A stretch of DNA of 58,711 bases, the filler included, from Sphacelaria rigidula (Eukaryota): assembly GCA_964200075.2 (NCBI GenBank). It is 9 parts of 9 records of this genome, joined end to end, with 100 filler letters (N's around TTAATTAATTAA, not from the genome) between each part and the next. Parts side by side here need not be neighbours in the genome. Positions count along the whole stretch, not along the records: positions 26,141 to 32,575 come from CAXNAA020020086.1; 8 more parts are not named here. One strand, written 5' to 3'. Under the pieces are notes generated by a model, which was not told where the DNA came from, made no database searches, and saw only the letters and a program-made list of their open reading frames with translations. Positions 6,436 to 52,100 of this stretch are shown here, piece by piece (within the stretch, counting starts at the first letter, position 1; every line of letters starts with the position of its first letter). The translations under genes and the position numbers were made by a program.

Positions 6436-6535
6436 NNNNNNNNNNNNNNNNNNNNNNNNNNNNNNNNNNNNNNNNNNNNTTAATTAATTAANNNNNNNNN
6501 NNNNNNNNNNNNNNNNNNNNNNNNNNNNNNNNNNN
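6436..6535. other. Artificial contig spacer (44N-TTAATTAATTAA-44N)
   Basis: Identical spacers also at 12971-13070, 19506-19605, 26041-26140, 32576-32675, 39110-39209, 45644-45743 and 52178-52277. The 12-mer has stops in all six frames. Confidence 0.97.
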
Positions 6536-19802: not shown

Positions 19803-22035
19803 CTGCATGTGTTCCACCAGTAATACCCGCAGCGGCTCAACCATCTCCGCCAAACGCGGCAGGGACGTTCTCAGCCAGTGCACCTATTGCAGGAACTGCA
19901 TAAGCTCGCCTGCTATGTGGGGGCGCCTAAGATTGGCCAGCCCGGTCAGTCTCTCGCGGTCATGGGCCCCTTGACCACCTGAAAAGACCTTTCCGCACCA
20001 CGTGATCTGTGTATCGTAGAACATGCTCTTGTGCGCAGCCGCAAAAAGACCAGTATCCTCCGAACGGCCCAAAATCTCGTCCAGTGTACACAACAGATCA
20101 TCTTCATCTTTACCCCACCACAAGATACCATCCACCCATACTTTGCACTGAAGTCCGGTCAATAATGCTGTCATGATGCCTTGGAGGTACCCCGTCGCAT
20201 TCAACACACACCTCTTGCGGCACCCGTGTGGGGGTACACAGACCTTCGGGGAGTCGCGATTGTGAATATTTCTTGTGTATCAGCCGCCAACGGCATCTTC
20301 CAGTACCCCTGCAGCATATCAATCTTTCCAAAACACGCAGTGCCCAGCAGCTCGATCATCTCCACCTTGTGGTCAGGCATAACATTGGGAGTCTTCTCAA
20401 TTTGCTTGTTTACCGCGCGATAATCACTCACCAGTCGATAACCGCCCTTCTTCGGCGTCGCCATGGCCGCATTCGCCCACACTGCCTGTAAGCTGCGAAG
20501 TACGAGCCCAAGCGCCACCAGCATCGCCATACACCCTGCTAACCACATTGCCTTTACAGGAGAATACACCCGCGGGCTCGCCTTGACTGCCCTAGCCCCA
20601 GGTTTGAATCTCACCTTCAATAGCTCTACACGAGCAGGCGGATCACCGCGCCGTGCTCGCCGAAAAGCGTTGACACGGCGCCCAACAACCTCCCGAAGCT
20701 TATCAACGCCGCTCGCCGACATAACCTTGTCCGCAGCCGCCTGTACTGCATGATCCAGTGCGACACGACGCTCTGCCATCTCCTCCTCTGGAGTCATGTT
20801 CATCTCGGGATCATGCGACATCAATCGCTCAACGGAGGGGTCCACGGGCTCCTCTTGTCCATCTGGATCCTGTAACGCCTCAATCGCAATGCTCACACGC
20901 CTACATTCTCGGAATTCAGGCGTATCTACACCTCTCACCAACGCGTGTCTCGAGCGTGCGCATGCGTCCAGCCCACTGTACACGTCAATGCCCATGGCCT
21001 CCAGCGCACCGCCCCCGAGGATCACCACATCATCGGCACCTGGCATAACCGCATAGTGACACGGATCCAACACCACCGACCCCTACCTGGTGTGCAGAGC
21101 GGTGCGCACTTGGCACGTCTTCGACTGCATACTCCGTACATTACCATCAGCTGGTTTCACCGGGGGTGCACAAGCCATACTTGTGACAACTGACACATGA
21201 GGGAACACTGCTTGCAACTGGGCCGCCACTTTTTCAGACATGATAGTGATGCCAACCCCCGAATCCAAAACTGCAGTAAGAGGGCAAACGTTCTTGACTG
21301 CGGAACCTGGAACGGACAAGTCTGCCCGGCAGCATCGCTGCTTGCGGTCAACTATCACACCCTCAGCCAGTACATCTGCAGCCTCAGCGGTGTGCAGACC
21401 CCGCCATACCGGCATTGTCTGAGACGTCCACTCCTGAGCCGGTCCCGCCGCCAGTTGAGGTTGAGCTGCAGGAGCCGGAGCGGAAGGCTGGGGCGGCACC
21501 ATGCTATCCGCACTACCAGCACCCCCCTGGCGCTCCATCCCCTGGGTAAACAGCCCGTGTAGGAGCAGGACCTTTACCGCCCCCCTGCTGACCATGGACC
21601 TGTTGCTGCTGCTGCTGCTGCGGCGGCGGCGGCGGCGGCGACGACTTTGCTTCCCCACCTGACGCACTCGCTGCGGCCGCTGGTGTGCTCTGTTTGTTAC
21701 AGTCCTTCTTGTAGTGACCCTTATCGCCACACTCAAAACAACCTGCATAGCTCGGACGAGGTTTGTGGGGCTTTCTCGAGCTCTTACCGCCACTACCCGC
21801 TTCGGCGGCCGCAGCCGCTGCGCCGGCATGCGATGTCAGTTTTTTCGAGCCATGTGAGCCGCTTTTTTGCCCAAGTTGCGGTTGCTGGCGGCGGCGAGTG
21901 TCAACCTCCTGAACAGTTTTCCATCTTTCCGCAAAGTCATGAGCTACCTCATAAACCACTCTCGGGCACGTACGTTTTACAAACAGTCGGGTGCGACGTC
22001 AAAAACTCAATCCAGAAACGGCAACTTTCCTGAAT
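19803..22035 (-). mobile_element. Degenerate Ty3/gypsy LTR retrotransposon gag-pol fragment
   Basis: Order on the minus strand: CCHC knuckle CFECGDKGHYKKDC, aspartic protease AVLDSG, then RT motifs YRLVSDYRAVN, KIDMLQGYW, TPTRVPQ, LNAT..Q and VWVDGI. Several frameshifts split it into ORFs 21513-21959, 21083-21829, 20201-21076 and 19884-20207. Confidence 0.92.
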
Positions 22036-25840: not shown

Positions 25841-26813
25841 CTTTTTGAAAAACGAAGTGGCCTCCCACTCACAGGAACAACAACTCTCTCCTTACACCGA
25901 GACGCGCTGTACCACCTTACAATGACAATGGCCACAACGCCTCTTCCTCACGCAGGTCTCACCACGTGTTTGAAGTCCTTACACTCCTCTTCCTGGCCGT
26001 ACGTGGCCAAGCGTGGAACAAGCAACTCTCGCTGGCTCCANNNNNNNNNNNNNNNNNNNNNNNNNNNNNNNNNNNNNNNNNNNNTTAATTAATTAANNNN
26101 NNNNNNNNNNNNNNNNNNNNNNNNNNNNNNNNNNNNNNNNCAGGCGTGGGCCCTTCCGATCGGCGGGGGCGTGGTGTCTTTTTGCTGGTCCCCCGGTAAT
26201 TTCCCGATGCCCCCCCCCCCCCGCTAATATCAGTACTTCCTGTTTTCCGCTTGACTTCGAAACTCTTGTCCTGTCTTTTTTCACTTGTTCCATTCACCGA
26301 GACCGTGATTCGAGCTCGACGCCCTTCTGCCTCAGGGTGTGTATGCAGCGTCATCTCACGGTGTCGCCAATATGAAAAGGTGAAGCTTCCTCTACGGACA
26401 CTATTGCAATGGTCGGACGAACTAATGATTCGTCTGGAGATTACTTGATTCTAGTGTACCTTATTCGTACCGTATGAGTCAATCCTTACGCTTTGTTTTC
26501 AGCGTTGCAACCCAGATACGCGCAGCCCAGGCATGTGGAACGGCGCAGAAGTTGCGTGGAGACCTGCTTGACCAGCGGTCGACCTTTTTTCTCTCTCGGG
26601 CAATCGGGCCTAAGAAATCGTGGATTTGGTGATTCGAACTGCCGATGATTCGTTCCAACTGTGTACTATTGTAGTCGGAATTTCCGCTCGTTCTCTGTCT
26701 GGCAGTAGTCACAGGCACCACGAATTCAAGTACACAAAAAGAAGTGCACAAAACGTTCCCCAGGGGAAGGGGGGAGATATCCAAAACCGATCACTGACGG
26801 AAAACTAGAGTAC

Positions 26814-26989
26814 CTGTGTATTCTGTCTTCAGCCTGAGCCATGGATCCCGGAGTCCAGTACAGCTCAGCGAACACCGCGCACGATGCAGCCGTCAGGGTG
26901 ATACCCACCCCTGCAGCTGTGATACCGAGGATGATCACGGAGATCGACGGCTCTGCTTGGAAGCTGTCGACGATAGGCTGGCGCTTAGT
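26814..26989 (-). CDS. SMARCAL1/ZRANB3-type SNF2 helicase, exon with motifs V-VI
   Basis: cag|ACT...AG|gtac: TKRQPIVDSFQAEPSISVIILGITAAGVGITLTAASCAVFAELYWTPGSMAQAEDRIHR. FAEL.W.PG...QAEDR.HR is diagnostic of this subfamily. Confidence 0.93.
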
Positions 26990-28723
26990 CTGTCCCCGGA
27001 CGCAAGGAAGTCGCGTGCGCCGGGTGGATGCGATGCGGAGACGACAGAGAAGAAATGCATGGATGGGTGGAGTTAAAGGGGGAAAGTTGGGGAGGGGGGG
27101 TTCTCGGGACATAAATAATGCCTTAAAACTATGTTGATGTACTGTTTGTACGAGAAAAATCTAGTTACCCTGATGCAGCAAGCATATTTCCAAGAACACT
27201 AAAATGTGCTGATTTACGGGACGTGCGCCACGGTACTCTTGTTTTGATGTCGTGCTCCTCGAAATAGTCCTTCAAAGCATGCTGGGCTGGTAAAGGAACG
27301 TGACCCCAAGAGTTACAGTTACGGTATGTAGGTAGACTTATTGTTGTTCTGAGGTTGCTCTCTTTATGGACGTGTACCGGGAGCGTGCTAGCTGGAGCCG
27401 ATCTGAACAAAATGCACGTCCGATGAAAAACACAGTCTTCACTCAACATTGGGCAGATACTGCAGAAGCGGGCAGGAGGGGAGAGCGGAGGGGGGAGAGA
27501 TAATGCGGAAGCTCAGGCGTCAAAACATGTCCATATTCCTGAGTGCTCAACAAATTGAAGGGTCAAATGTTTTGTCAACGGGTCATTCTCCATCCTTTAT
27601 GGAGGGAACATGATAAAAGTTGCAGAAGGCAAGCGATCCAAACACGGAAGTCTCGCACGTGTGTGTGGTATGCGCAGAGGTAAACACCATCCAGCGTCCA
27701 GGTGACCTGATACGAACAAACAACAGCAGTAACAGCAGTAAGAACAAGTCTGTTGTTTCGTCAGAGGGTACTGTGTCGAGTAAAAGTGTGGCATCTCAGG
27801 ATGGACAAACGGACACCTCGCCTGAAAGAGCAGTCGCTTCGATCAACACAGGTGCAGTACGTCGATACATCAACTGCTGTGCCACAAGATGAGTGAATGA
27901 GCCCAAAACTGAAACAAAATGCGACCGGTTGAGGTGTGGGAGGTGGGAAAAGGAGGGGCGAGCTCATGACCACATCAACAAGGGCCAGGATACACATCGC
28001 CTTCCCCGACTGCCAGACCGTAGCCGCGACGTATCTCGTGGTCAGAACCTTTGTCATCGAGCGTAGTGGTACATATGTGATTTCACTGTAGATATCACTG
28101 TAGATATCGATGTAGATATCAATGCAGATGTCAATACAGATATCAACGCAGAGACAAGCAATCAAAAACGCGTAATTTCGAATAATTCTTCGAACGTACG
28201 AATGCGGGATGCATGTTACAGATCGACAAATCTGGAATTATCCGGGTAACGACCGGGAATGAGGAACAATAAGCACTGTAACAAAACGTATACTTCGTAC
28301 CTGATACCACGTGCCCACACACCCACATACCCACATACCCACATACCCACAGCTGTGTCTGGGAGTCCTGCGTAAAGTCAAAACGATCCCACTTGAACAG
28401 ATAGATAGTCCGGGTCGCGTCAGGGTCAACACTCCAAGGCATATTGGTGCAATATGGCTAGCGAACGATGAAGTGTAGTTATTCTAGTGAACTATGGGTA
28501 GGGTTAGGGTTAGGATAAGTGAACCATGAAGGCATGGTCGAGCACATTACATCAATACACTACACATACATGGTGCGTGTTGACTGGTCATACACCTGAA
28601 GCAATATAGTGTTCGAGACACTACACGGCGCGGCGATACCGTCATATCTTCATGCTTATGACACTGTTAACCTTGCAATCTACTGAGCATATACTGCACA
28701 CGTGAAACGCAGAAGTATCCTAC

Positions 28724-28801
28724 CTGACTCGTATGTCCGTCAATCCTCACTGACTTGACGCCCAATTTGCCCAGACCTGTCTCTAGAGCATCGATGACCT
28801 C
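28724..28801 (-). CDS. SMARCAL1/ZRANB3-type helicase, internal exon
   Basis: cag|GAG...CAG|gtag, 26 codons EVIDALETGLGKLGVKSVRIDGHTSQ (RIDG motif). Phase 0 at both ends. Confidence 0.9.
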
Positions 28802-29635
28802 CTGCCGTATGTTGTCATGTTCCAAAAATATCGGGACAGATAGGAGGGAGAGCGACATTCGAGCGTGCGGTGGGGGAAGGGGGAAGAGGTGCTCCATCCA
28901 CACGTTCAAATGTCTGTTTTGAACTCAAGCGTGTCGAAATCATATGTACGAACCATTAGATCTATTCACGCATAAGCCGTGATGTGACTGCATCCATCGA
29001 CCCTCTCCTCCACCCAGCGGTGATTCGGACCTTGACGTGTCTCATTCCTCTCGAATCTACAATACATACCCCTTTACTGTCGTGCTATTGCTGCCGCGCC
29101 CCGGTAGTCAAACTGGTACACACATTAATTAACACTACAACCTGGGCTGCCTAAGAAGCACTTTCCTTCAGCCTGTTTTATGTTACGATGTATTGCGAGT
29201 TGTGCCTACCATGACACGTCGTAGTAATCGGCGAATCAGCGCGCGTCTCCACATTCATGTAGCACTGCGATCCGACAAGGTCTCCTCAAAAGGAAGTACC
29301 AAACTGTAGTCATTGTAGTGTTGGCAGACTTTTGCTATTAGAATTCCCACAGTAGTAAGGCCCCTTCCCCTGGTTTCTGCGTAGTCGAACTGGTACATAC
29401 ATCACCACTATTAGTGTGGCCAGATTTTTGTATCTAGAATTCCGACCGTAGTTCAGCGGTTTCCCCTGGTTTTCGTCGAATCTAACAACGCGGGAACGTG
29501 CGTGTGGCCAAATCAACATGTGATTAAAGTCGCTCTTGTCGCAGGAGTGGACGCTGACCCGATGCGCGATACAACAAACGTGCAAGGCAAGGATTGGGGG
29601 CGAGGTGGAGGTGGGTCAACTGCTCCCTTGAGACA

Positions 29636-29890
29636 GTGTGTGTGTGTGTGTGTGTGTGTGCTGTCGTCCCATCAATCCTGGGGGCCGGTCTACACCTTTC
29701 GGTACATGTGGGCGCACTCGCCGGGTTCACACAGGAAGAAGGCCGACACAGGAGGAGTTCTTTCTTATGTGTTTGTTTTTGTTCTCCACCTTCCTTCCGC
29801 GGTGCTTGCCTTTTATTTTTTCTAATCGCGAAAGGGGTTCAGCAGTCCCTCTCCCTCGTCGACCATTCAGTCCCTTTTTTTGTTTTTTTT
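29636..29890 (-). mobile_element. 5'-truncated SINE (family B) with (CA)n tail
   Basis: Matches 49243-49470 and 39730-39850. (TG)n at 29636-29660. Confidence 0.7.
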
Positions 29891-30004
29891 CTGAGACTAC
29901 GGACTACAATCGAGGAAGGCGAGAGGAAGGGAAAGCAAGGGGCAGGCTACGCGTACGACGACAACTTGAAGAAAACAATTATCTACGCCCATGTATCTAT
30001 ATAC

Positions 30005-31774
30005 CTGGTGATGGGCGAACACCACAAGCTTCCGCGGCTCCTTACCCACGCTTCCTTCGCTCTTGACCCTCGCTTTTCGTTTTCCTCTTTTCCCGTCGTG
30101 GTCACGTCCAGCAACCGCCACCTCAGCAGGACTTCCCCGTCTCCCGCGACTCTCGCGCGATCGCAATACACCAGCACCACACCCACCCGAATCATGACCT
30201 GCCGTAATCGAATTTGGCGATTCATTTTGTGGCATCTCTCTTTCTTTTTTGATGGTGTTGATGTTGAGCCTTCGCTGTTGCGATTTGTCCGCCGCCGCGG
30301 CAGACGATCCACGAGAATGTTTCTTCTTATCGGCCTCTCTGCGGCGAGTACGCCGCTTTGATAACGACGAAAGGGATTCGACGGCATCATCGTCCTCATC
30401 ATCATCGCCGCTTTGCCCTGCGTGATCTCTATCCGGGACAAACTCTTCATCATCATCCTCATCACCGCTACTACCGCAATCATCGTGGCTATTACAATCT
30501 ATTTCACACATAGCTTCGTCGTGGCTAGCCCGAGCCCGCCTACGAGGTCTCGCTGACCCACCATCACCACCGCCGCCGCCATCACCACAATTGCCAACAC
30601 TTTTCCGTTTACGCGAGCCCACTGCTGCCGCCACACCTTCCCTCCGCCCTGCTCCTGCTAATCTTCCGCTGCCGCCACGATCACGGCGACGACTAGGTCT
30701 ACTAGCCCTGCCACCCGATCCTATGCAGAAATCTTCATCACTATCACTACCGCCGTCGCCACCGCTGCCGCTGCCTCCTCCGCGGGCTCTCGGCTGCGAA
30801 TCCTTCCCTACCCTACCGCCACCCCGCCCCCTTGTCGCGTCGTCACCGCTGCCTTCGCCGCTATCGCTGTCCAATGCAAGCCTGCGTAGCTTTCGGCTTC
30901 TGGGAATATCGCCGCCGAGTACATCATTGTCGGCATCACTGCCTTCGGTGTCTCCGCCGCTGCGGCCGTCAGTGGAGAGACGAGACAGCTTCTTTTGTGC
31001 TTTGCTTGTCTCGCGGCCGCGGTCACGACCGCCGCAGGGGTCACCTCGATCATCATCGCTATCTAGCATCCACATTCCGTCGTCTTCTTGCTCGTCGGAG
31101 GCCACGGCGTTCCCGGAACAGCGTGGACCGCTGCTGCTCCGGAGATCGTCATTATCCGCAGTGCCTCTAGTCCTTCCTTGTCCTCGTTTCTGTCCTGCTG
31201 CCTTGCCCGACGCGAATATTTTCTCCTTTGCGGATAGTCGTCCTGCGGGAGATCGGCCCTCGGTGACGTTGTCGGCGGCTGATCTGTTGTTGCAAGCAGG
31301 TTTCGCCGTTTCGCACATATCACACCGACGGCTCGCCGCCGAGTTGATGTATGTACAAGCTGGGCATGACCACTCTTCACTAGCCTCGACTTTGCCGCCG
31401 TCGCCCCCGCCGCCGCCACCATTGTGACGGTCGTCCTTGGATGATGCGTTGTGGATCTCTTGCCCTTGTCCTCGTGTTGCATGGGGACCATCGTACTCCG
31501 CTCTTTGCGCCGGCGACGATGGAAATGGGCCAAGAGATGGCGATGACGATGATGCGCCGGGTACGCGCAACGGCGGGAAGAAATGCTTCGGTTTTGGAGG
31601 CGTAGGAGGACGAGAAGGACGACTACAAAGAGGACCTGGATCGAGCTTCCGGGCGTCCACAATACCGCCGATGCCACACTCTGTCCCACGATTCTTGCTC
31701 CCAGCGTTGGTTCTACCGTCAATATCCTCGGCGTCAATTAGGAGGGACTTGAGGTGTGCCAGGATGCCCTTAAT
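30005..31774 (-). CDS. SMARCAL1/ZRANB3-type helicase, 1770-bp exon with RanBP2-type zinc finger and long low-complexity insert
   Basis: tag|ATT...CAG|gtat, 590 open codons: IKGILAHLKSLLI...WSCPACTYINSAASRRCDMCET...KLVVFAHHQ (motif IV). In phase with the next exon. Confidence 0.88.
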
Positions 31775-33779
31775 CTATCCACGTGAGGAGGCAGGCGGAG
31801 GAAAATACGGTGAAGAGGTTTCCAAGGGAAAATGACGGTTTGTTACGGCGGGCGAGAGGGACAGCGGCTGCGGGGATGCAGGTTTGAAGGGCAAGAGGAG
31901 CGGCTGTGAGAGAAAGAGCGAGGGTGACATATACATATACATATATTAACGGCGAGAAGTAGAAAGTGCGAAAGATCATTCGACAGGTACGGAGACGGGC
32001 AGAAACATAGACGTAAACATAGACATAGCCGTAGAAGGAGGCAAAGAAAGAGACGGGAACGCAAAAGAGAGAGCGAAGGTGAGAGAAGAGATGCAGTAGA
32101 GACGTCCGTAGCCGTCTCGTGGTGCTCGCCGTGAAATACTCACGACCGATCTCCGAACAGGGCGAACGCTCGCGAGATGGCTTCGAAAAATTGAGGGAGA
32201 ACGACCTCGATAGATTCTGAGTTATCCTACGATAGGGGGTGTACTCATGATCATGCATGCCATAGTCATGAGACCATTGACCTCATATAGGGGGGAGTAT
32301 TTGATTGCACCAAAAAGAAAGGCTCAGAGGTGTGTCAGGCGATCTGCCCCACTCGCGGTGCGCTTGTATTTCGTTCAAAACGATGTCAAGCAGTATGAAT
32401 GAGCGCCATTTACCTGTAACAAGGTCGTTCGAACAACCGTTGCTACTTTCAACGACGATTTGGCTTGGGATTTCGTGCAAGAAGTGGCCCGAAATACCCC
32501 CCCCCCCCTATCGTGATGGTGAGACACCCATAAGGCAGTGTATAAGACGTGGCTGTCTCGGGAAGTGGCGATACCNNNNNNNNNNNNNNNNNNNNNNNNN
32601 NNNNNNNNNNNNNNNNNNNTTAATTAATTAANNNNNNNNNNNNNNNNNNNNNNNNNNNNNNNNNNNNNNNNNNNNCCCTACAAAGCCGGGACGGAGCACG
32701 CCGGGTTCTCGCCGGACCAGGCCATGAAGCCGGGGGGGGGGAGGGACTTATGAACTTGCATACCGTAGTCATATGACCATCGACCTCGCATCCCCACAGA
32801 GCTGGGACGGAGCACGCCAAGTTCTTGCCGGACCAGGGTCGTGATGTCGGGGGGAAAGAGGGGACACACGACGCAAAATTGTGTCCAGATATCGTTGAAA
32901 ACGTGATGACATTTGACGAACGCCGGGATAACATTGCAGAACCTATACTACATCAAATGTCGTAACCCATCTAAAGGCTCGATGCAAGTTGTGTGAGCAA
33001 AAAATCCGGCGAAGGTCAATGTCAGTGGTTTCGAGATGCCCCCGAGGTTCGCTCGCCTGGCCTCCTGACCTTGATATCCGCCCTCACGCCTCTGTACACA
33101 CGCCACTCGATGTCTTCGGCACTTCTACGTCTTCCGCCGGGCTGCTGTGCGGTTGGATCATCCTGTTGGAGCAGATAACGATGTCCCTTCTACCTGTATT
33201 CCTTGCCCTCTGGGTGGGTGTCACACGAATTCGTGACTACTGGCACTTTCAGGTACGGTACCTCGGGGTCTCTCAATTGCGAAATTTTCGGTGTAGTTTG
33301 GACGGTAGGTCTGTCGTTCAACCATACCTGATGATACCTAAGTGTGTGTGGCAGGAGTTCGCTTGTTCATCAACCACTGGGGCGTTGGGAAAGATAAGAG
33401 TCACAAACCATGGTGTCCGCAGCATGCTGCAGCAACCAGAATTTGGCTGAGATCATTTTGTGAGTGTGTAACGCTCACTACGGATGGTGGACGCATCAGA
33501 AACGTACACTAGTCCATCACTCCCTTCACCATTTCTTCCACTAGTATGTCATACAAAGCTAATTTCACTCGGGCTTCCTGTTGGATGCCCAGCAATGAGC
33601 ATGCCCCAAATGAGATTGCAGCGCTAACCCTCGAGGAGCTGTCGTCGACGGTGTACAAGCGAAGGTGTGCGATCACACCAAAAGGAGAACGACCCCCGTG
33701 GTTGATCCTGCGTTAATGGTCCAGCATGGGCCGATGATTATTTTGGTCGAGCCAAATTGAGGCGAATCTTTTCACATAT

Positions 33780-47715: not shown

Positions 47716-49242
47716 AAAGCACTGACTGAGTTGTTCATTAAGTACCGTATATTATTAACTTATCCCCCACAAGTCATGATCCAGTCGTGGTTACTATCCA
47801 AATGATAGGCATACCCTGGATGAAACAAAACGAAAACACTCGCTGGACGAAGGAAAGAGAAGAAGAAAAGAGAAGAAGGAAAACAGAAAGAAGGAGGAGC
47901 AGGCGCAAAGAAGACCAGACAGAAAAGAAAAAAAAAACAGGCGAAAACAAAAACAAAAATACTCTTAATAAGCGAAAGCAAAGCAAAAGCGAAACAACAA
48001 AAGAAGAACAACAGTACTACAGACAGCAAGCAGGTCGGTCACGCTGAGGTGGTCTTGCCAAAAACCAGAGCAACGTTCTCGGAATGCCGGAGGCACGGAG
48101 GTCAGGCAACACTGAGTTCTCTGCCGCAAGATACCGCATCTTCTCCTGTGGAACAGAAGGGAGAGAGGTAAGAAGAGCTGGACGGCGCAGGGTTGAGTCG
48201 GCGGTTAATGAGTCGATCATCAACAACACTACGTGAACACAGACACTTCCAAGTCCGAGTCCGGACAAGATACGGACATGTCTTGGATTGAGTTGACACG
48301 TTCTGGACTGAGCTGGATAGCACTGTGAATCAGGTCCCGAACCACCACACCACCTGCTTGTTCTAATAGATGCGGATGCTAGGGTTGAGATACGAAGACG
48401 AGACATACGTGGTAAAGTAACGGGGGTATACGGTAGCGGTCCAGGGCGAACGCAGCAATGGTACGCGGCCCTGCTAGATTTTTGTAGATATTTTCAACAA
48501 GCTTTTCCTGGCCTACTTCCTCTTGCGGTGCTCGCCTCATCTTTTCTTTGCAAGAAGGGTTTAGCGGTGCATTTCCCTCGTCAACCGTGAAGTGGAAGTT
48601 TGTGTCAACCATCACTACTACAAAATTGATGGCAGATCTCAAGATAAATCTATCACCCATGTTTTCGGGAAGAAAAAAAATGTTTCATACAAAAAACAAA
48701 AAATCATGGCAGTTCAGTGCATTACGTTTTGACGTTTCTACACACGCGCGCGAGCGCTATTTTCTCGCACAATACTCTACCGTGATGTCGCCAACCCCTT
48801 CCTCACGAGACTGTCATGCGGATCATGGCCCTGGTTCGTCTCACTACTTCCTTACGTAAACCCTATCCTGTCATGAGAGGCTGGTACGGGTATCTGAAAG
48901 GAGGATGGGGTTCAGGCCCATAATTATCGACACGGTTTTTCCCAAGACTTCCGAATTTTTCAGACACGTCGGACGCCGCGTTCGGGTTTTCCAACAATGA
49001 AGTGGCTTGACTTTTTCTCCGGAACTTCATTTTGGGGCAAATCTGGAGATTACCCAGCACTTCGGAGAGCTACCCTGTGCGTACGCCGGGGCGCTCACAA
49101 GCTTTCGAGACTCATCAGTTGCCATCAATGTCCGAAATTCATCGAAAAACTCCAAAAAACGGTGTCGATAATAATGGGCCTTAGCAGGACGAATGCTGGA
49201 GAGCGAGCAGTACTGCAGGGACAAGGAGGAGGAACTGTTACA

Positions 49243-49607
49243 GTGTGCGTGTTGTCGTCCCATCTATTCTGGACGCCAGTCTACACCTTTCGGTATATAC
49301 TTCGTATGGGCGCACCAGCCGCGGTTACACAGGAGGAACGTCAACACAGGAGCTTTTTTCTTTTTTGTTTGTTTTTAGTACTCCACCTTTCTTCTGCGGT
49401 GCTTGCTTATATATTTTTCATCGCAAGAAGCATCCGGCAATCCCCTTCCCTTGTCGACCGTCAAGTCGAATTTTTTGTACCCACGACACAGTCGCTCTCC
49501 GCTGTTATGCATGGTGTGAGAAAAATCCCAGATCACTCCGAGATTTTAACCCACGACCCAACCGTCAGAAGATTTCGAGGTTACCAACTGAGCCACCGGG
49601 GCGACCG
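49243..49607 (-). mobile_element. Near full-length tRNA-derived SINE (family B)
   Basis: Minus strand begins gccccggtggctcagttggt (A box) ... gggttaaaatctc (decayed B box) and ends gatgggacgacaacacgcacac. Confidence 0.75.
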
Positions 49608-49899
49608 ATTACAGTCATTATTATTATTATTATTATTTCCACACATTAGTCCGATCTCGCGAACCCGTGGTCACAGACGTGACTCGCCTTTCCAATACCG
49701 TCCCTGCTATTTCTTACAAGACACATTACCGAAACTAAAAATAAGACGAGAGACGCCACGGAAACCAGTGAGATGTAGCTCCCCCGAGTTCAACCAGGAG
49801 AGAAAGGAAAGAAAGAAAAACAAACGAACACACGAACATCAAACGCCAGATCTGTCAGAAATGTACACCGAAAGACAGTACGAGGGTAAAATCGGTGAG

Positions 49900-52100
49900 A
49901 GATCTAAACATCACTGCTCTACTTTGCAGATTGCAACAACATCGGAATCTATCGATCCAACCGTCATCGAGAACATCCCGCGACGACCGACAGCGCTGCC
50001 ACTCGGAGACCCGCCGATCCGGAATGAAGCTGAAGAGGCACTGAAAGATTCGGGCGATGCCAAAGCGATGGGACCGAATGCTGGGTTACCTGCTAAACTC
50101 GTCAAGCTTGAGGTCGTCGGGGCGTTTATCGGGATTATGTTCCACTTCAACAACACGATGGTTATCGTGTGAACATTTGGCGAGGTGCTGTCGGCGTGGA
50201 AAGACGCCAGCACCGAAGTGCTACACAAGTACGGGATAGGAGTGCGTGTGGCTAAGAACGGGGCATTTCCCCCGTAGCGCATGCTGGTAAAGTTCTACTC
50301 AAGATCGTAGCTAACAGGCTCCGCAGTTTCTGCGAGGACGCAGGGATTTCGCCGGAAACAGTGGCCAATGCTACGGTAGGGGTGCACGTTTTGCGCGAAA
50401 TCTTGTCTAGTTCAAGGGCTCCTCACGATTCTAGATGCACAAGAATATGGTCAGGACATCCCCGTTTGCGAACTCATTCGGGATATCCCCAGCACATTGG
50501 AATAGTAATCCTGGCGTACTCTCACATATTTTCATAAGTCGTGTTTCGGATGAGATCAAGGGCTCCTAACAATTGTAACCTCAGAAACTATTTGTGCACC
50601 CCGACCGTAGCATCACTCCGCCGTGTGGGTTCCGGCGCAACCGACCGTCCAACGACATGATGTTCGCGGTACGCCCACTGCAGGAGTTGGGACGGCCGAG
50701 CCACATTCACGCACCATTTAACAGCCGATCATCGAAACTAGGGACGGAGCTTGTCATTGAGGATGAGAACCCCGGAGAAATAAAATATTCTTGTCCGCAC
50801 CAAATCTTCGAAATATGGTCCCATTCCTTCATCGACCATAAGCTGTTGACAACTACTACACGCCATACAAATTTGGATTCTGATAACGGACATGTTGGGG
50901 TCCTAAGTGAAAAAAACAACTTTGGGGAATTTCGGCGATCCTATCGGATCACCTACATTTCTAGAGCTCGGAAATGGTACCAGTTGTAACTGGCCATTAT
51001 CATTATAATGGAAATAGTGGTGATGGTTATATGTTTTTTTTCCGATAATGGTTTCAAACCATTATTTACCGTTACCGGCTTTATAAGCCGTTACCGGCTA
51101 CGTTTGCTATATACAGCCCACTTTGAAGTACGTTTTTAGCTCTGGTGGAGCCAAATCGAGTGAAACCGTGCCCCCGGCACGGCGTCTCCAGCGGGGCCCC
51201 CTCTGCCGGGATGTACTCATGATCATGCCGTGGGGGGGCTCTTTGGCTCGCGGCCGCGCCGCTCGATAACCAAGCCATTACGTACCATTTAAGTGGTCAA
51301 TGAGTGCGCTACGCGTAACCATCCAACCGATTGATGGTTAGACAAACCATTTCCGAGCTCTATAAATTTCCCAATTTTTTTTAGATCTGGTTTACCTGTC
51401 GCCGAACAGAGTTCGGGGGCAGACACGACCATTGTCTTGAATATGGTTCATCTACATGATGCGCCAAAGTAAGGATGGCAATTCCGTAAAAGAAAAGACG
51501 CTGCAAAGGGTGAGTCTCGCGGTGCGGAAAACGCTCCACGCGGATGACGTAGACAACGCCTCAAGGTCCCGTCATGGGCTTGCTAGGGCGATGGCTGTGA
51601 TAGTGGTGCTCTGCCAGAGTTTCGGACGACCGGTACCGGGGAACACGATAGAGTCCGTGCACCTGTGGTCAGGAACTCAGCTAGCTAGAGGCCGTGCTGT
51701 ACGACAAGGTGGCAGATGAGCGATATCGGAAGATCGTCGAGCTTGTCTGCCTTGGTGTTATCAGCGTGGACGTGACTCTTTATATCGAAGTCGAGCGTGC
51801 GTTAGCGCTGCGTGGGCACGCCTCCGCAGAGTTCCACACTCTACGATCGGCACAATACGCTGCTCTTTCTCAAACTCAGGCTGCGTAGATTTGGGGATGG
51901 TGGAAGCTACGTTGTACAGGTTTTCCACGTGAACGCTGCGCCCAGAGGACTTCGGAAGCCTGGGCACTGTCTGCCAGAACCTCCTGCTGCCTTCAGTTGG
52001 CTTCCACTGGAAGGATCGTAAGGGACAGAAAGAAGACTCTGACGTACAGAGCTATGCTGAAGCTGGCCCATTGCGAGCGTATCGAAATGGCCGTATGAAT
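49900..52100 (+). mobile_element. Degenerate RTE-clade LINE reverse-transcriptase region, interrupted by insertions
   Basis: Remnant motifs [34 protein letters not shown]...DMMFAVR.LQELGR and LHADD, with many stops and frameshifts. Confidence 0.8.
50962..51362. mobile_element. hAT-type MITE (TAGAGCTCGGAA family), copy 2, opposite orientation
   Basis: Perfect 17-bp TIRs tagagctcggaaatggt / accatttccgagctcta. TSD tacatttc/taaatttc (7 of 8 match). Confidence 0.9.

Follow-up and report, generated by a model that had tools for sequence, protein, structure and literature searches.

The window analysed is a 58,711-nucleotide stretch of Sphacelaria rigidula DNA (GCA_964200075.2) made of contigs of ~6.4 kb (~6435 bases), and because these are unrelated contigs joined by N linkers, neighbors in the window are not neighbors in the genome. 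The linkers are 100 bases long, carry a six-frame stop word, and lie at 6436, 12971, 19506, 26041, 32576, 39110, 45644, and 52178. One contig holds a gene piece on the minus strand (Table 1). Translation bore out the first-pass annotation of one open 1770-bp exon that begins in the helix after the conserved lysine of lobe 2 and ends in the motif IV strand: minus-strand 30005..31774 is open through 590 codons, is flanked by an AG acceptor and a GT donor, and from stop to stop gives a frame of 625 aa, the longest among 215 ORFs listed between 20000 and 45000. The first 13 residues align with the lysine helix of Ectocarpus, Scytosiphon, Undaria, and other orthologues; the G-x-A-K motif itself belongs to the preceding exon, which is off the contig or not found. 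Joined in frame, the three exons of the contig give a lobe 2 with intact SMARCAL1-type motifs IV, V, and VI, and the exon with motifs V and VI is 88% identical to Ectocarpus proteins. The initial assignment to SMARCAL1/ZRANB3-like helicases stands on these motifs and on named matches that are SMARCAL1-like; sequence comparison supports the exon as part of an SNF2 ATPase of that family.

Table 1. Features of the gene piece, in window coordinates
Feature	Position	Strand	Evidence
Contig G000:C20086 carrying the gene piece	26141..32575	.	Genome placement
Exon with helicase motifs V and VI	26814..26989	-	Spliced contigs and translation
GT-AG intron, 1734 nt	26990..28723	-	Joint in X1, X2, X4; absent in X5
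Exon, 26 codons, lobe 2	28724..28801	-	Spliced contigs and translation
GT-AG intron, 1203 nt	28802..30004	-	Joint in X1, X2, X4; absent in X5
Large coding exon, 590 codons, phase 0 at both ends	30005..31774	-	Open frame, AG/GT ends, spliced contigs
Helicase motif IV strand (last 11 residues of exon)	30005..30037	-	Translation, alignment
566-residue low-complexity acidic/basic insert	30038..31735	-	Composition
Short Trp-hydrophobic-Asp-Ser-Asp motif, common to Ectocarpus inserts	31049..31072	-	Alignment and motif scan
RanBP2-type/NZF zinc finger, Thr-Tyr plus Met in second C-x-x-C	31313..31372	-	Pfam PF00641
Helix after the conserved lysine of the lobe 2 G-x-A-K motif	31736..31774	-	Alignment with orthologues

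High-copy repeats occur in the introns of the gene (26356-26785, 29581-30010, and 32161-32575; summed contig depth in the thousands or more), with at least 39 other genome matches near 32220-32500, and three telomere-like GGGTTA units lie in an intron at ~28495-28515. A different contig of the window holds pieces that by eye resemble the gag zinc knuckle, protease, and reverse transcriptase of an LTR retrotransposon (19884-21998, minus strand), and another has a 424-codon open frame (48898-50169, plus strand).

Four of the eight listed sequencing runs were compared, as assembled contigs. X1, X2, and X4 are three samples from one study, and X5, which is DNA-like, comes from another; the RNA nature of the first three is a guess made without a record, and they are treated as RNA because GT-AG joints are present there and absent in X5. 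In each of X1, X2, and X4, a single contig (3199-3238 nt) spans 30004-31776 without a break and continues, across GT-AG introns, into 28724-28801 and then 26814-26989, whereas X5 reads through without either joint. The RNA check suggested in the first-pass annotation therefore has the whole exon, insert included, retained within spliced RNA-like contigs of this one study. None of the joints listed falls inside the exon; contigs drop rare variants, and a minor splice form that removes insert sequence could coexist. The transcript contigs extend a further 1352-1380 nt upstream of the exon, leaving room for the ~403 codons that Scytosiphon P0138 has there.

The ~565 low-complexity residues originally reported between the helix and motif IV were counted as 566 (exon residues 14-579), led by G (92), R (69), S (68), D (62), and A (52). 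Besides the zinc finger, a Pfam scan of the exon gave only a sub-threshold acidic match, and an Atlas search with the insert region returned only Helicase_C clusters, under 0.9. The first reading had seen no clear PIP box, and a motif scan likewise gave no PIP-like match anywhere in the exon. SUMO-interacting-like motifs had 0 matches in the window insert, and a SUMO-interacting role was dropped for it on that ground. Among other inserts, such motifs numbered 4 in 8 finger-bearing inserts versus 0.27 expected from shuffles, and 12 in 16 finger-less inserts versus 3.9 expected, with 3 of the 12 from a mis-delimited row.

Low complexity, poor alignment between species, and the ability of contigs to conceal rare isoforms could all be expected if the insert were an unspliced intron, a mobile element, or an intein lying outside the working protein. 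That origin is highly improbable, given that the insert is continuous in spliced contigs whose flanking introns are gone and that its finger is conserved across classes. Pfam gives no intein or transposon family in the exon at E up to 1, on which basis an intein or mobile-element origin was rejected. A second allele also argues against an artefact: within the exon, X4 carries 18 substitutions and a single 3-nt deletion yet keeps the frame, and the 17 listed substitutions, none of which falls in the finger, comprise 8 silent and 9 residue-changing events (pN/pS 0.36, one-sided P 0.033).

The position of the insert within the motor is unusual. In the family as a whole, the distance from the lysine to motif IV has a median of 23 residues (169 of 257 rows measurable). 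The usual place for inserts in SNF2 proteins is named the major insertion site. All three Swr1-type proteins compared have their long insert before the lysine helix, with motif IV 20 residues after the helix, and Kluyveromyces lactis Rad5 aligns from the lysine helix through motif VI over 143 residues versus 138, placing its RING upstream. By alignment, then, the algal insert follows the lysine helix and its site is different from that of Swr1 and Rad5, which precedes it. The parallel drawn earlier with RAD5/HLTF survives in part. Like Rad5/HLTF with their embedded RING and Ino80/Swr1 with their long insert, the algal protein carries a ubiquitin-related zinc module or long insert within the SNF2 core, but the analogy is loose because the sites differ. 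In addition, the RING is a ligase whereas the algal finger is a putative reader, and Pfam scans gave no RING or HIRAN in the exon or its orthologues. The loop before motif IV seems to tolerate additions elsewhere, as it is longer than usual in one fungal Mot1 inspected; that Mot1/BTAF1 loop is still short, has no finger, and belongs to another subfamily with another job, and PDB alignments of Mot1 begin only at motif IV.

An AlphaFold model of the compact orthologue P0151 (826 residues), built on a seven-sequence alignment with mean pLDDT 62 and pTM 0.47, places a helix at 439-477 and the motif IV strand at 557-560. Predicted confidence drops below 50 at 480-505 and 533-552, and the finger sits between these stretches at moderate confidence. 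A fold search with this model returned general SNF2 motors only, with no SMARCAL1 or ZRANB3 ATPase core in the best 60 of 86 PDB matches.

The proposal of a RanBP2-type finger inside the ATPase core was confirmed by a Pfam Zn_ribbon_RanBP match (PF00641, E 8.6e-9, 34.9 bits versus a cut-off of 27). The finger lies at 31313-31372, against ~31307-31372 in the first reading. The pattern W-x-C-x2-C-x3-N-x6-C-x2-C occupies exon residues 135-154. According to the available sections of PMC11372445, a ubiquitin-binding NZF has a Thr-(Phe/Tyr) pair, defined as the motif for the ubiquitin I44 patch, plus a hydrophobic residue in the second C-x-x-C. The window finger has this full signature: four Cys, Trp, Asn, Thr-Tyr, and the hydrophobic residue. 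It also matches ZRANB3 in residue and register at W625, T631, Y632, N634, and M643. In the accessible part of PMC12841045, mutations at these positions weakened polyubiquitin binding or eliminated it; Table 1 there rates W625, Y632, and N634 as required, with a contribution from T631 and M643. A general NZF consensus is given in the portion of PMC3940038 available. Thr-Tyr or Thr-Phe is kept in 8 of the 10 in-core fingers listed, and beyond the core signature these fingers show little conservation, like the published NPL4/ZRANB3 group. On these sequence grounds the finger is a probable ubiquitin reader, in line with the ubiquitin-type finger first suggested. No K63 specificity, such as had been put forward for assay, is predicted: on its own, the ZRANB3 NZF binds di-ubiquitins with affinities of 28-48 uM and shows no linkage preference (PMC11372445, available sections).

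Complex prediction with the genome's own ubiquitin gave 0.38 versus 0.03 for the best control, a grade that the tool calls weak and a value in a range in which, for pairs without prior plausibility, wrong passes outnumber right ones. The runs agree in 100% of contacts, with partner pLDDT of at least 67. In the benchmark, the mark was reached by 51 of 78 solved pairs and 2 of 108 mismatched pairs, and passing scores of 0.60 or less came from only 5 solved pairs but from all 4 passing mismatches. The predicted contact may echo solved NZF-ubiquitin structures.

RanBP2-type fingers bind several kinds of ligand. The PDB matches of the window finger include TAB2, TAB3, HOIL-1, HOIP, Npl4, and TRABID, but also Nup153 and RanBP2, and the best by E-value are the multi-finger nucleoporins Nup153 and Nup358. 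Two near-identical in-core fingers (P0065/P0067) have Thr-Leu, and that of P0151 has Cys at the third hydrophobic position. These features leave some room for a finger that binds Ran, RNA or single-stranded DNA, or a partner protein instead of ubiquitin, or for an enzyme that acts outside replication forks. Either is improbable, as the nucleoporin fingers among the PDB matches listed lack the Thr-aromatic pair that most in-core fingers keep, the very pair assigned to the I44 patch.

Orthologues with an in-core finger at the same place occur in Ectocarpus sp. 12 (P0009, P0124) and sp. 8 (P0137), Scytosiphon promiscuus (P0138, a record that stops within the insert), Undaria pinnatifida (P0139), Chrysoparadoxa australica (P0152, full length), P0065/P0067, and P0151. 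Insert length is 566 residues in the window, 390-392 in Ectocarpus, 381 in Undaria, 219 in Chrysoparadoxa, 168 in P0065, and 78 in P0151. Of 431 proteins gathered, 256 were measurable by motif and 215 were distinct; the finger lies between the RRxK motif and motif IV in 6 of the 215 and after the helicase in 9, counts that give no prevalence estimate since the collection was made with these same queries and takes in other SNF2 subfamilies. No in-core finger appeared in an oomycete or diatom protein among the matches listed.

A related clade, many of whose members have an N-terminal GRF finger, carries at the same site an acidic insert, 64 to ~390 residues long (a range that leaves out the mis-delimited P0186), with no zinc finger in it, and Pinguiococcus P0172 has a short loop there. 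Within the GRF-finger group, P0154, P0159, P0179, P0185, P0207, and relatives have a weak HARP and an acidic in-core insert without NZF, often joined by a PIP-like motif and by an RPA-like helix at the C-terminus; the tail of P0170 contains five PIP-like repeats. Because the related clade fills the same site without a finger, the loop probably preceded the finger, an order that rests on unstarred tree branches. The first reading needs amending here, as the site is also filled where no finger is present. The layout is lineage-restricted, as the first-pass annotation had it, but common to several brown algae, Chrysoparadoxa, and other relatives. A search of the literature on the architecture and the taxa, with most subscription papers beyond its reach, found no published description of an in-core finger, and the layout is apparently an undescribed variant of a known enzyme family that is real, expressed, and conserved.

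The remainder of the protein is known from orthologues. Lobe 1, with Walker A and DExH, is intact in P0138 and P0152. Searches of the genome assembly (G000) with P0124, P0138, P0137, and P0008 did not find the lobe 1 and tail exons of the window gene; they found paralogues on contigs C168 and C228. The C228 paralogue (L021, L022) is of ZRANB3 type and includes an SRD-like stretch; a different contig, C117, holds an HNH match. The C168 paralogue (L023, L024) is the orthologue of P0012/P0143, SMARCAL1-like proteins of brown algae that lack a finger and are longer by ~100 residues ahead of the lysine helix. No NZF pattern occurs in C228:1-20000 or C168:10001-24000.

Scytosiphon P0138 has a HARP domain before the ATPase (27.6 bits, over the Pfam cut-off of 25). 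The HARP score of P0151 is weak (5.0 bits), and P0152 has no HARP match. With a purpose-built profile, candidate HARP-like exons were found on two separate contigs of the Sphacelaria genome, C25705 (6.5 bits) and C8994 (13.4 bits); they are phase-compatible and match the start of P0138.

Of 19 clade proteins, some of them near-duplicates, 13 have a C-terminal helix that scores at least 2 bits with a profile built from 20 N-terminal RPA motifs of SMARCAL1; P0124, P0151, and P0152 are among those with such a helix. Scores in Ectocarpus are modest (4.8-7.1 bits). Among 226 controls, six scored 7 or more, all of them N-terminal motifs, and the best other scored 3.1. P0138, P0151, and P0152 have no N-terminal RPA32-binding motif, no RPA-partner peptide resembling the C-terminal helix of an orthologue was found in the PDB, and the G000 search did not find an RPA32 C-terminal domain. 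As the tail exons of the window gene were not found in G000, its RPA-like helix is assumed from orthologues. TIPIN uses an RPA32-binding motif of the SMARCAL1 kind. When the Ectocarpus tail was compared with G000, it matched a similar helix in a Swi3/TIPIN gene (E 0.37); this exon (G000:C107:6203-7678, minus strand, L031), with its RPA32-binding-like helix, was ruled out as the last exon of the gene and served as an internal control.

In its core motifs, HARP before the ATPase, RPA32-binding-like helix, and lack of HNH (in the two full-length orthologues, P0151 and P0152), the algal enzyme resembles animal SMARCAL1. No HNH was found either in P0124, which extends to the RPA-like helix. The two differ in that SMARCAL1 has two HARPs and the algal orthologue one, that residues 5-30 of SMARCAL1 bind RPA32C (available text of PMC11109976) and so lie N-terminally whereas the algal helix is C-terminal, and that the algal proteins carry an insert of 78-566 residues with an NZF. 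With ZRANB3, both animal and diatom ZRANB3-like (e.g. Skeletonema P0132), they share the ATPase core and the key residues of the NZF. The ZRANB3 finger follows the helicase and is accompanied by SRD, HNH, and PIP/APIM, whereas the algal finger lies inside lobe 2, without HNH in full-length orthologues. The Ectocarpus and Chrysoparadoxa records checked have no canonical PIP, and P0151 has a PIP-like motif. Atlas neighbors of P0152 include both SMARCAL1 and ZRANB3 clusters.

A careful tree excluded the hairpin and the insert and was built from 360 core columns, using 40 of the 80 rows of a quick tree; the window row fills 26% of the columns. The finger-bearing rows form one group (94/90, unstarred), in which the window sequence is sister to Ectocarpus (99/98) and P0065 groups with a fragment from Tribonema minus (97/87). 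This group joins the finger-less insert group, Pinguiococcus, and diatom HNH-bearing proteins at 83/93 (unstarred). The best tree contains a union with animal ZRANB3 (62/79) but none with animal SMARCAL1, which is nevertheless not rejected (p-AU 0.373).

The first-pass annotation had the finger moved into the motor domain. Relocation is not established, because the trees fit it and independent gain alike. One history has a ZRANB3-type ancestor, with helicase, PIP, NZF, SRD, and HNH, that lost its nuclease and moved its finger into the core; in the alternative, a SMARCAL1-type gene gained a finger. The clade with diatom HNH-bearing proteins, the weak grouping with animal ZRANB3, and a PIP-like motif after the helicase in several members point to the ZRANB3-type ancestor. 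Of 125 other family members, however, 31 likewise carry PIP-like motifs, among them animal SMARCAL1. HARP and the RPA-like helix are traits of SMARCAL1, the quick tree placed the diatom group outside, and the same genome has the separate gene on C228 with its SRD-like stretch. Together with the unrejected union with SMARCAL1, these points make the ZRANB3-type ancestor a tentative and rather doubtful choice, and one compatible with the explanation preferred below.

That explanation, given a probability of about 60%, is a fork-remodelling translocase recruited by ubiquitin and RPA, with its finger on a flexible tether, for which we infer the binding, the fork activity, and the role of the tether. 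The enzyme would be a single-subunit SNF2 DNA translocase of the SMARCAL1/ZRANB3 group, with the order, as predicted from orthologues, of HARP, lobe 1, helical hairpin, lysine helix, disordered insert with NZF, and lobe 2, followed by a disordered tail and the RPA32-binding-like helix. It would anneal or regress stalled replication forks, and HARP, by analogy with the family, may read the fork junction. Two weak handles would bring it there: the C-terminal helix, which would engage single-stranded DNA coated with RPA, and the finger, which would bind ubiquitin (e.g. on PCNA or RPA) without chain-type specificity. In RecA folds, the N-terminal end of the motif IV strand faces away from the ATP cleft. 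The insert is predicted to exit lobe 2 at this end, and the exit away from the cleft suggests a long flexible tether, not a rigid part of the motor, in an expandable, phosphorylatable region that may also bear nuclear localization signals.

A second role for the insert is regulation of the motor, in which an acidic/basic loop holds lobe 2 or competes with DNA until ubiquitin or phosphorylation releases it, so that ubiquitin both recruits the enzyme and switches it on. The site is filled in the finger-bearing group and the related clade with similar acid/base make-up, every orthologue that has a finger has it inside the core, and the window insert contains 17 CK2-type sites (from a motif scan with no chance control), all of which would suit a regulator. 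Such control is nonetheless unlikely. Insert length varies about seven-fold, the finger stands anywhere from ~40 to 165 residues past the lysine helix, and the sequence around it barely aligns, with nothing apart from the finger conserved across classes. The embedded RING of Rad5 offers a further counterexample, as the accessible part of PMC7804152 describes it as mobile, with little motor contact, and thought autonomous. Tethering is favored because of this length variation and the lack of other conserved sequence; allosteric coupling between insert and motor is possible. Bolder still is the idea that, in brown algae and their relatives, one enzyme merges the RPA-guided route of SMARCAL1 with the ubiquitin-guided route of ZRANB3 and that ubiquitin bound at lobe 2 gates the motor. 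It is improbable, but if true it would describe a ubiquitin-switched SNF2 translocase at an insertion site not seen in Rad5 or Ino80/Swr1.

In the available sections of a review (PMC12841045), SMARCAL1 is said to have no orthologues outside choanozoans, and non-animal ZRANB3-like proteins are said always to keep the nuclease. HARP-bearing, nuclease-free algal proteins with an RPA-like helix fit that scheme poorly, orthology permitting. The algal layout places a conserved ubiquitin-type reader at an unusual site within an ATPase and combines targeting parts that animals split over two enzymes. P0151 provides a ready construct with which to ask whether such a reader serves only as a tether or also controls an SNF2 motor; Chrysoparadoxa CAM9452974.1 is a further compact orthologue. 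More broadly, ochrophyte algae appear to have reshuffled the targeting modules of fork remodellers (HARP, RPA helix, NZF, PIP, GRF, and HNH) around one motor.
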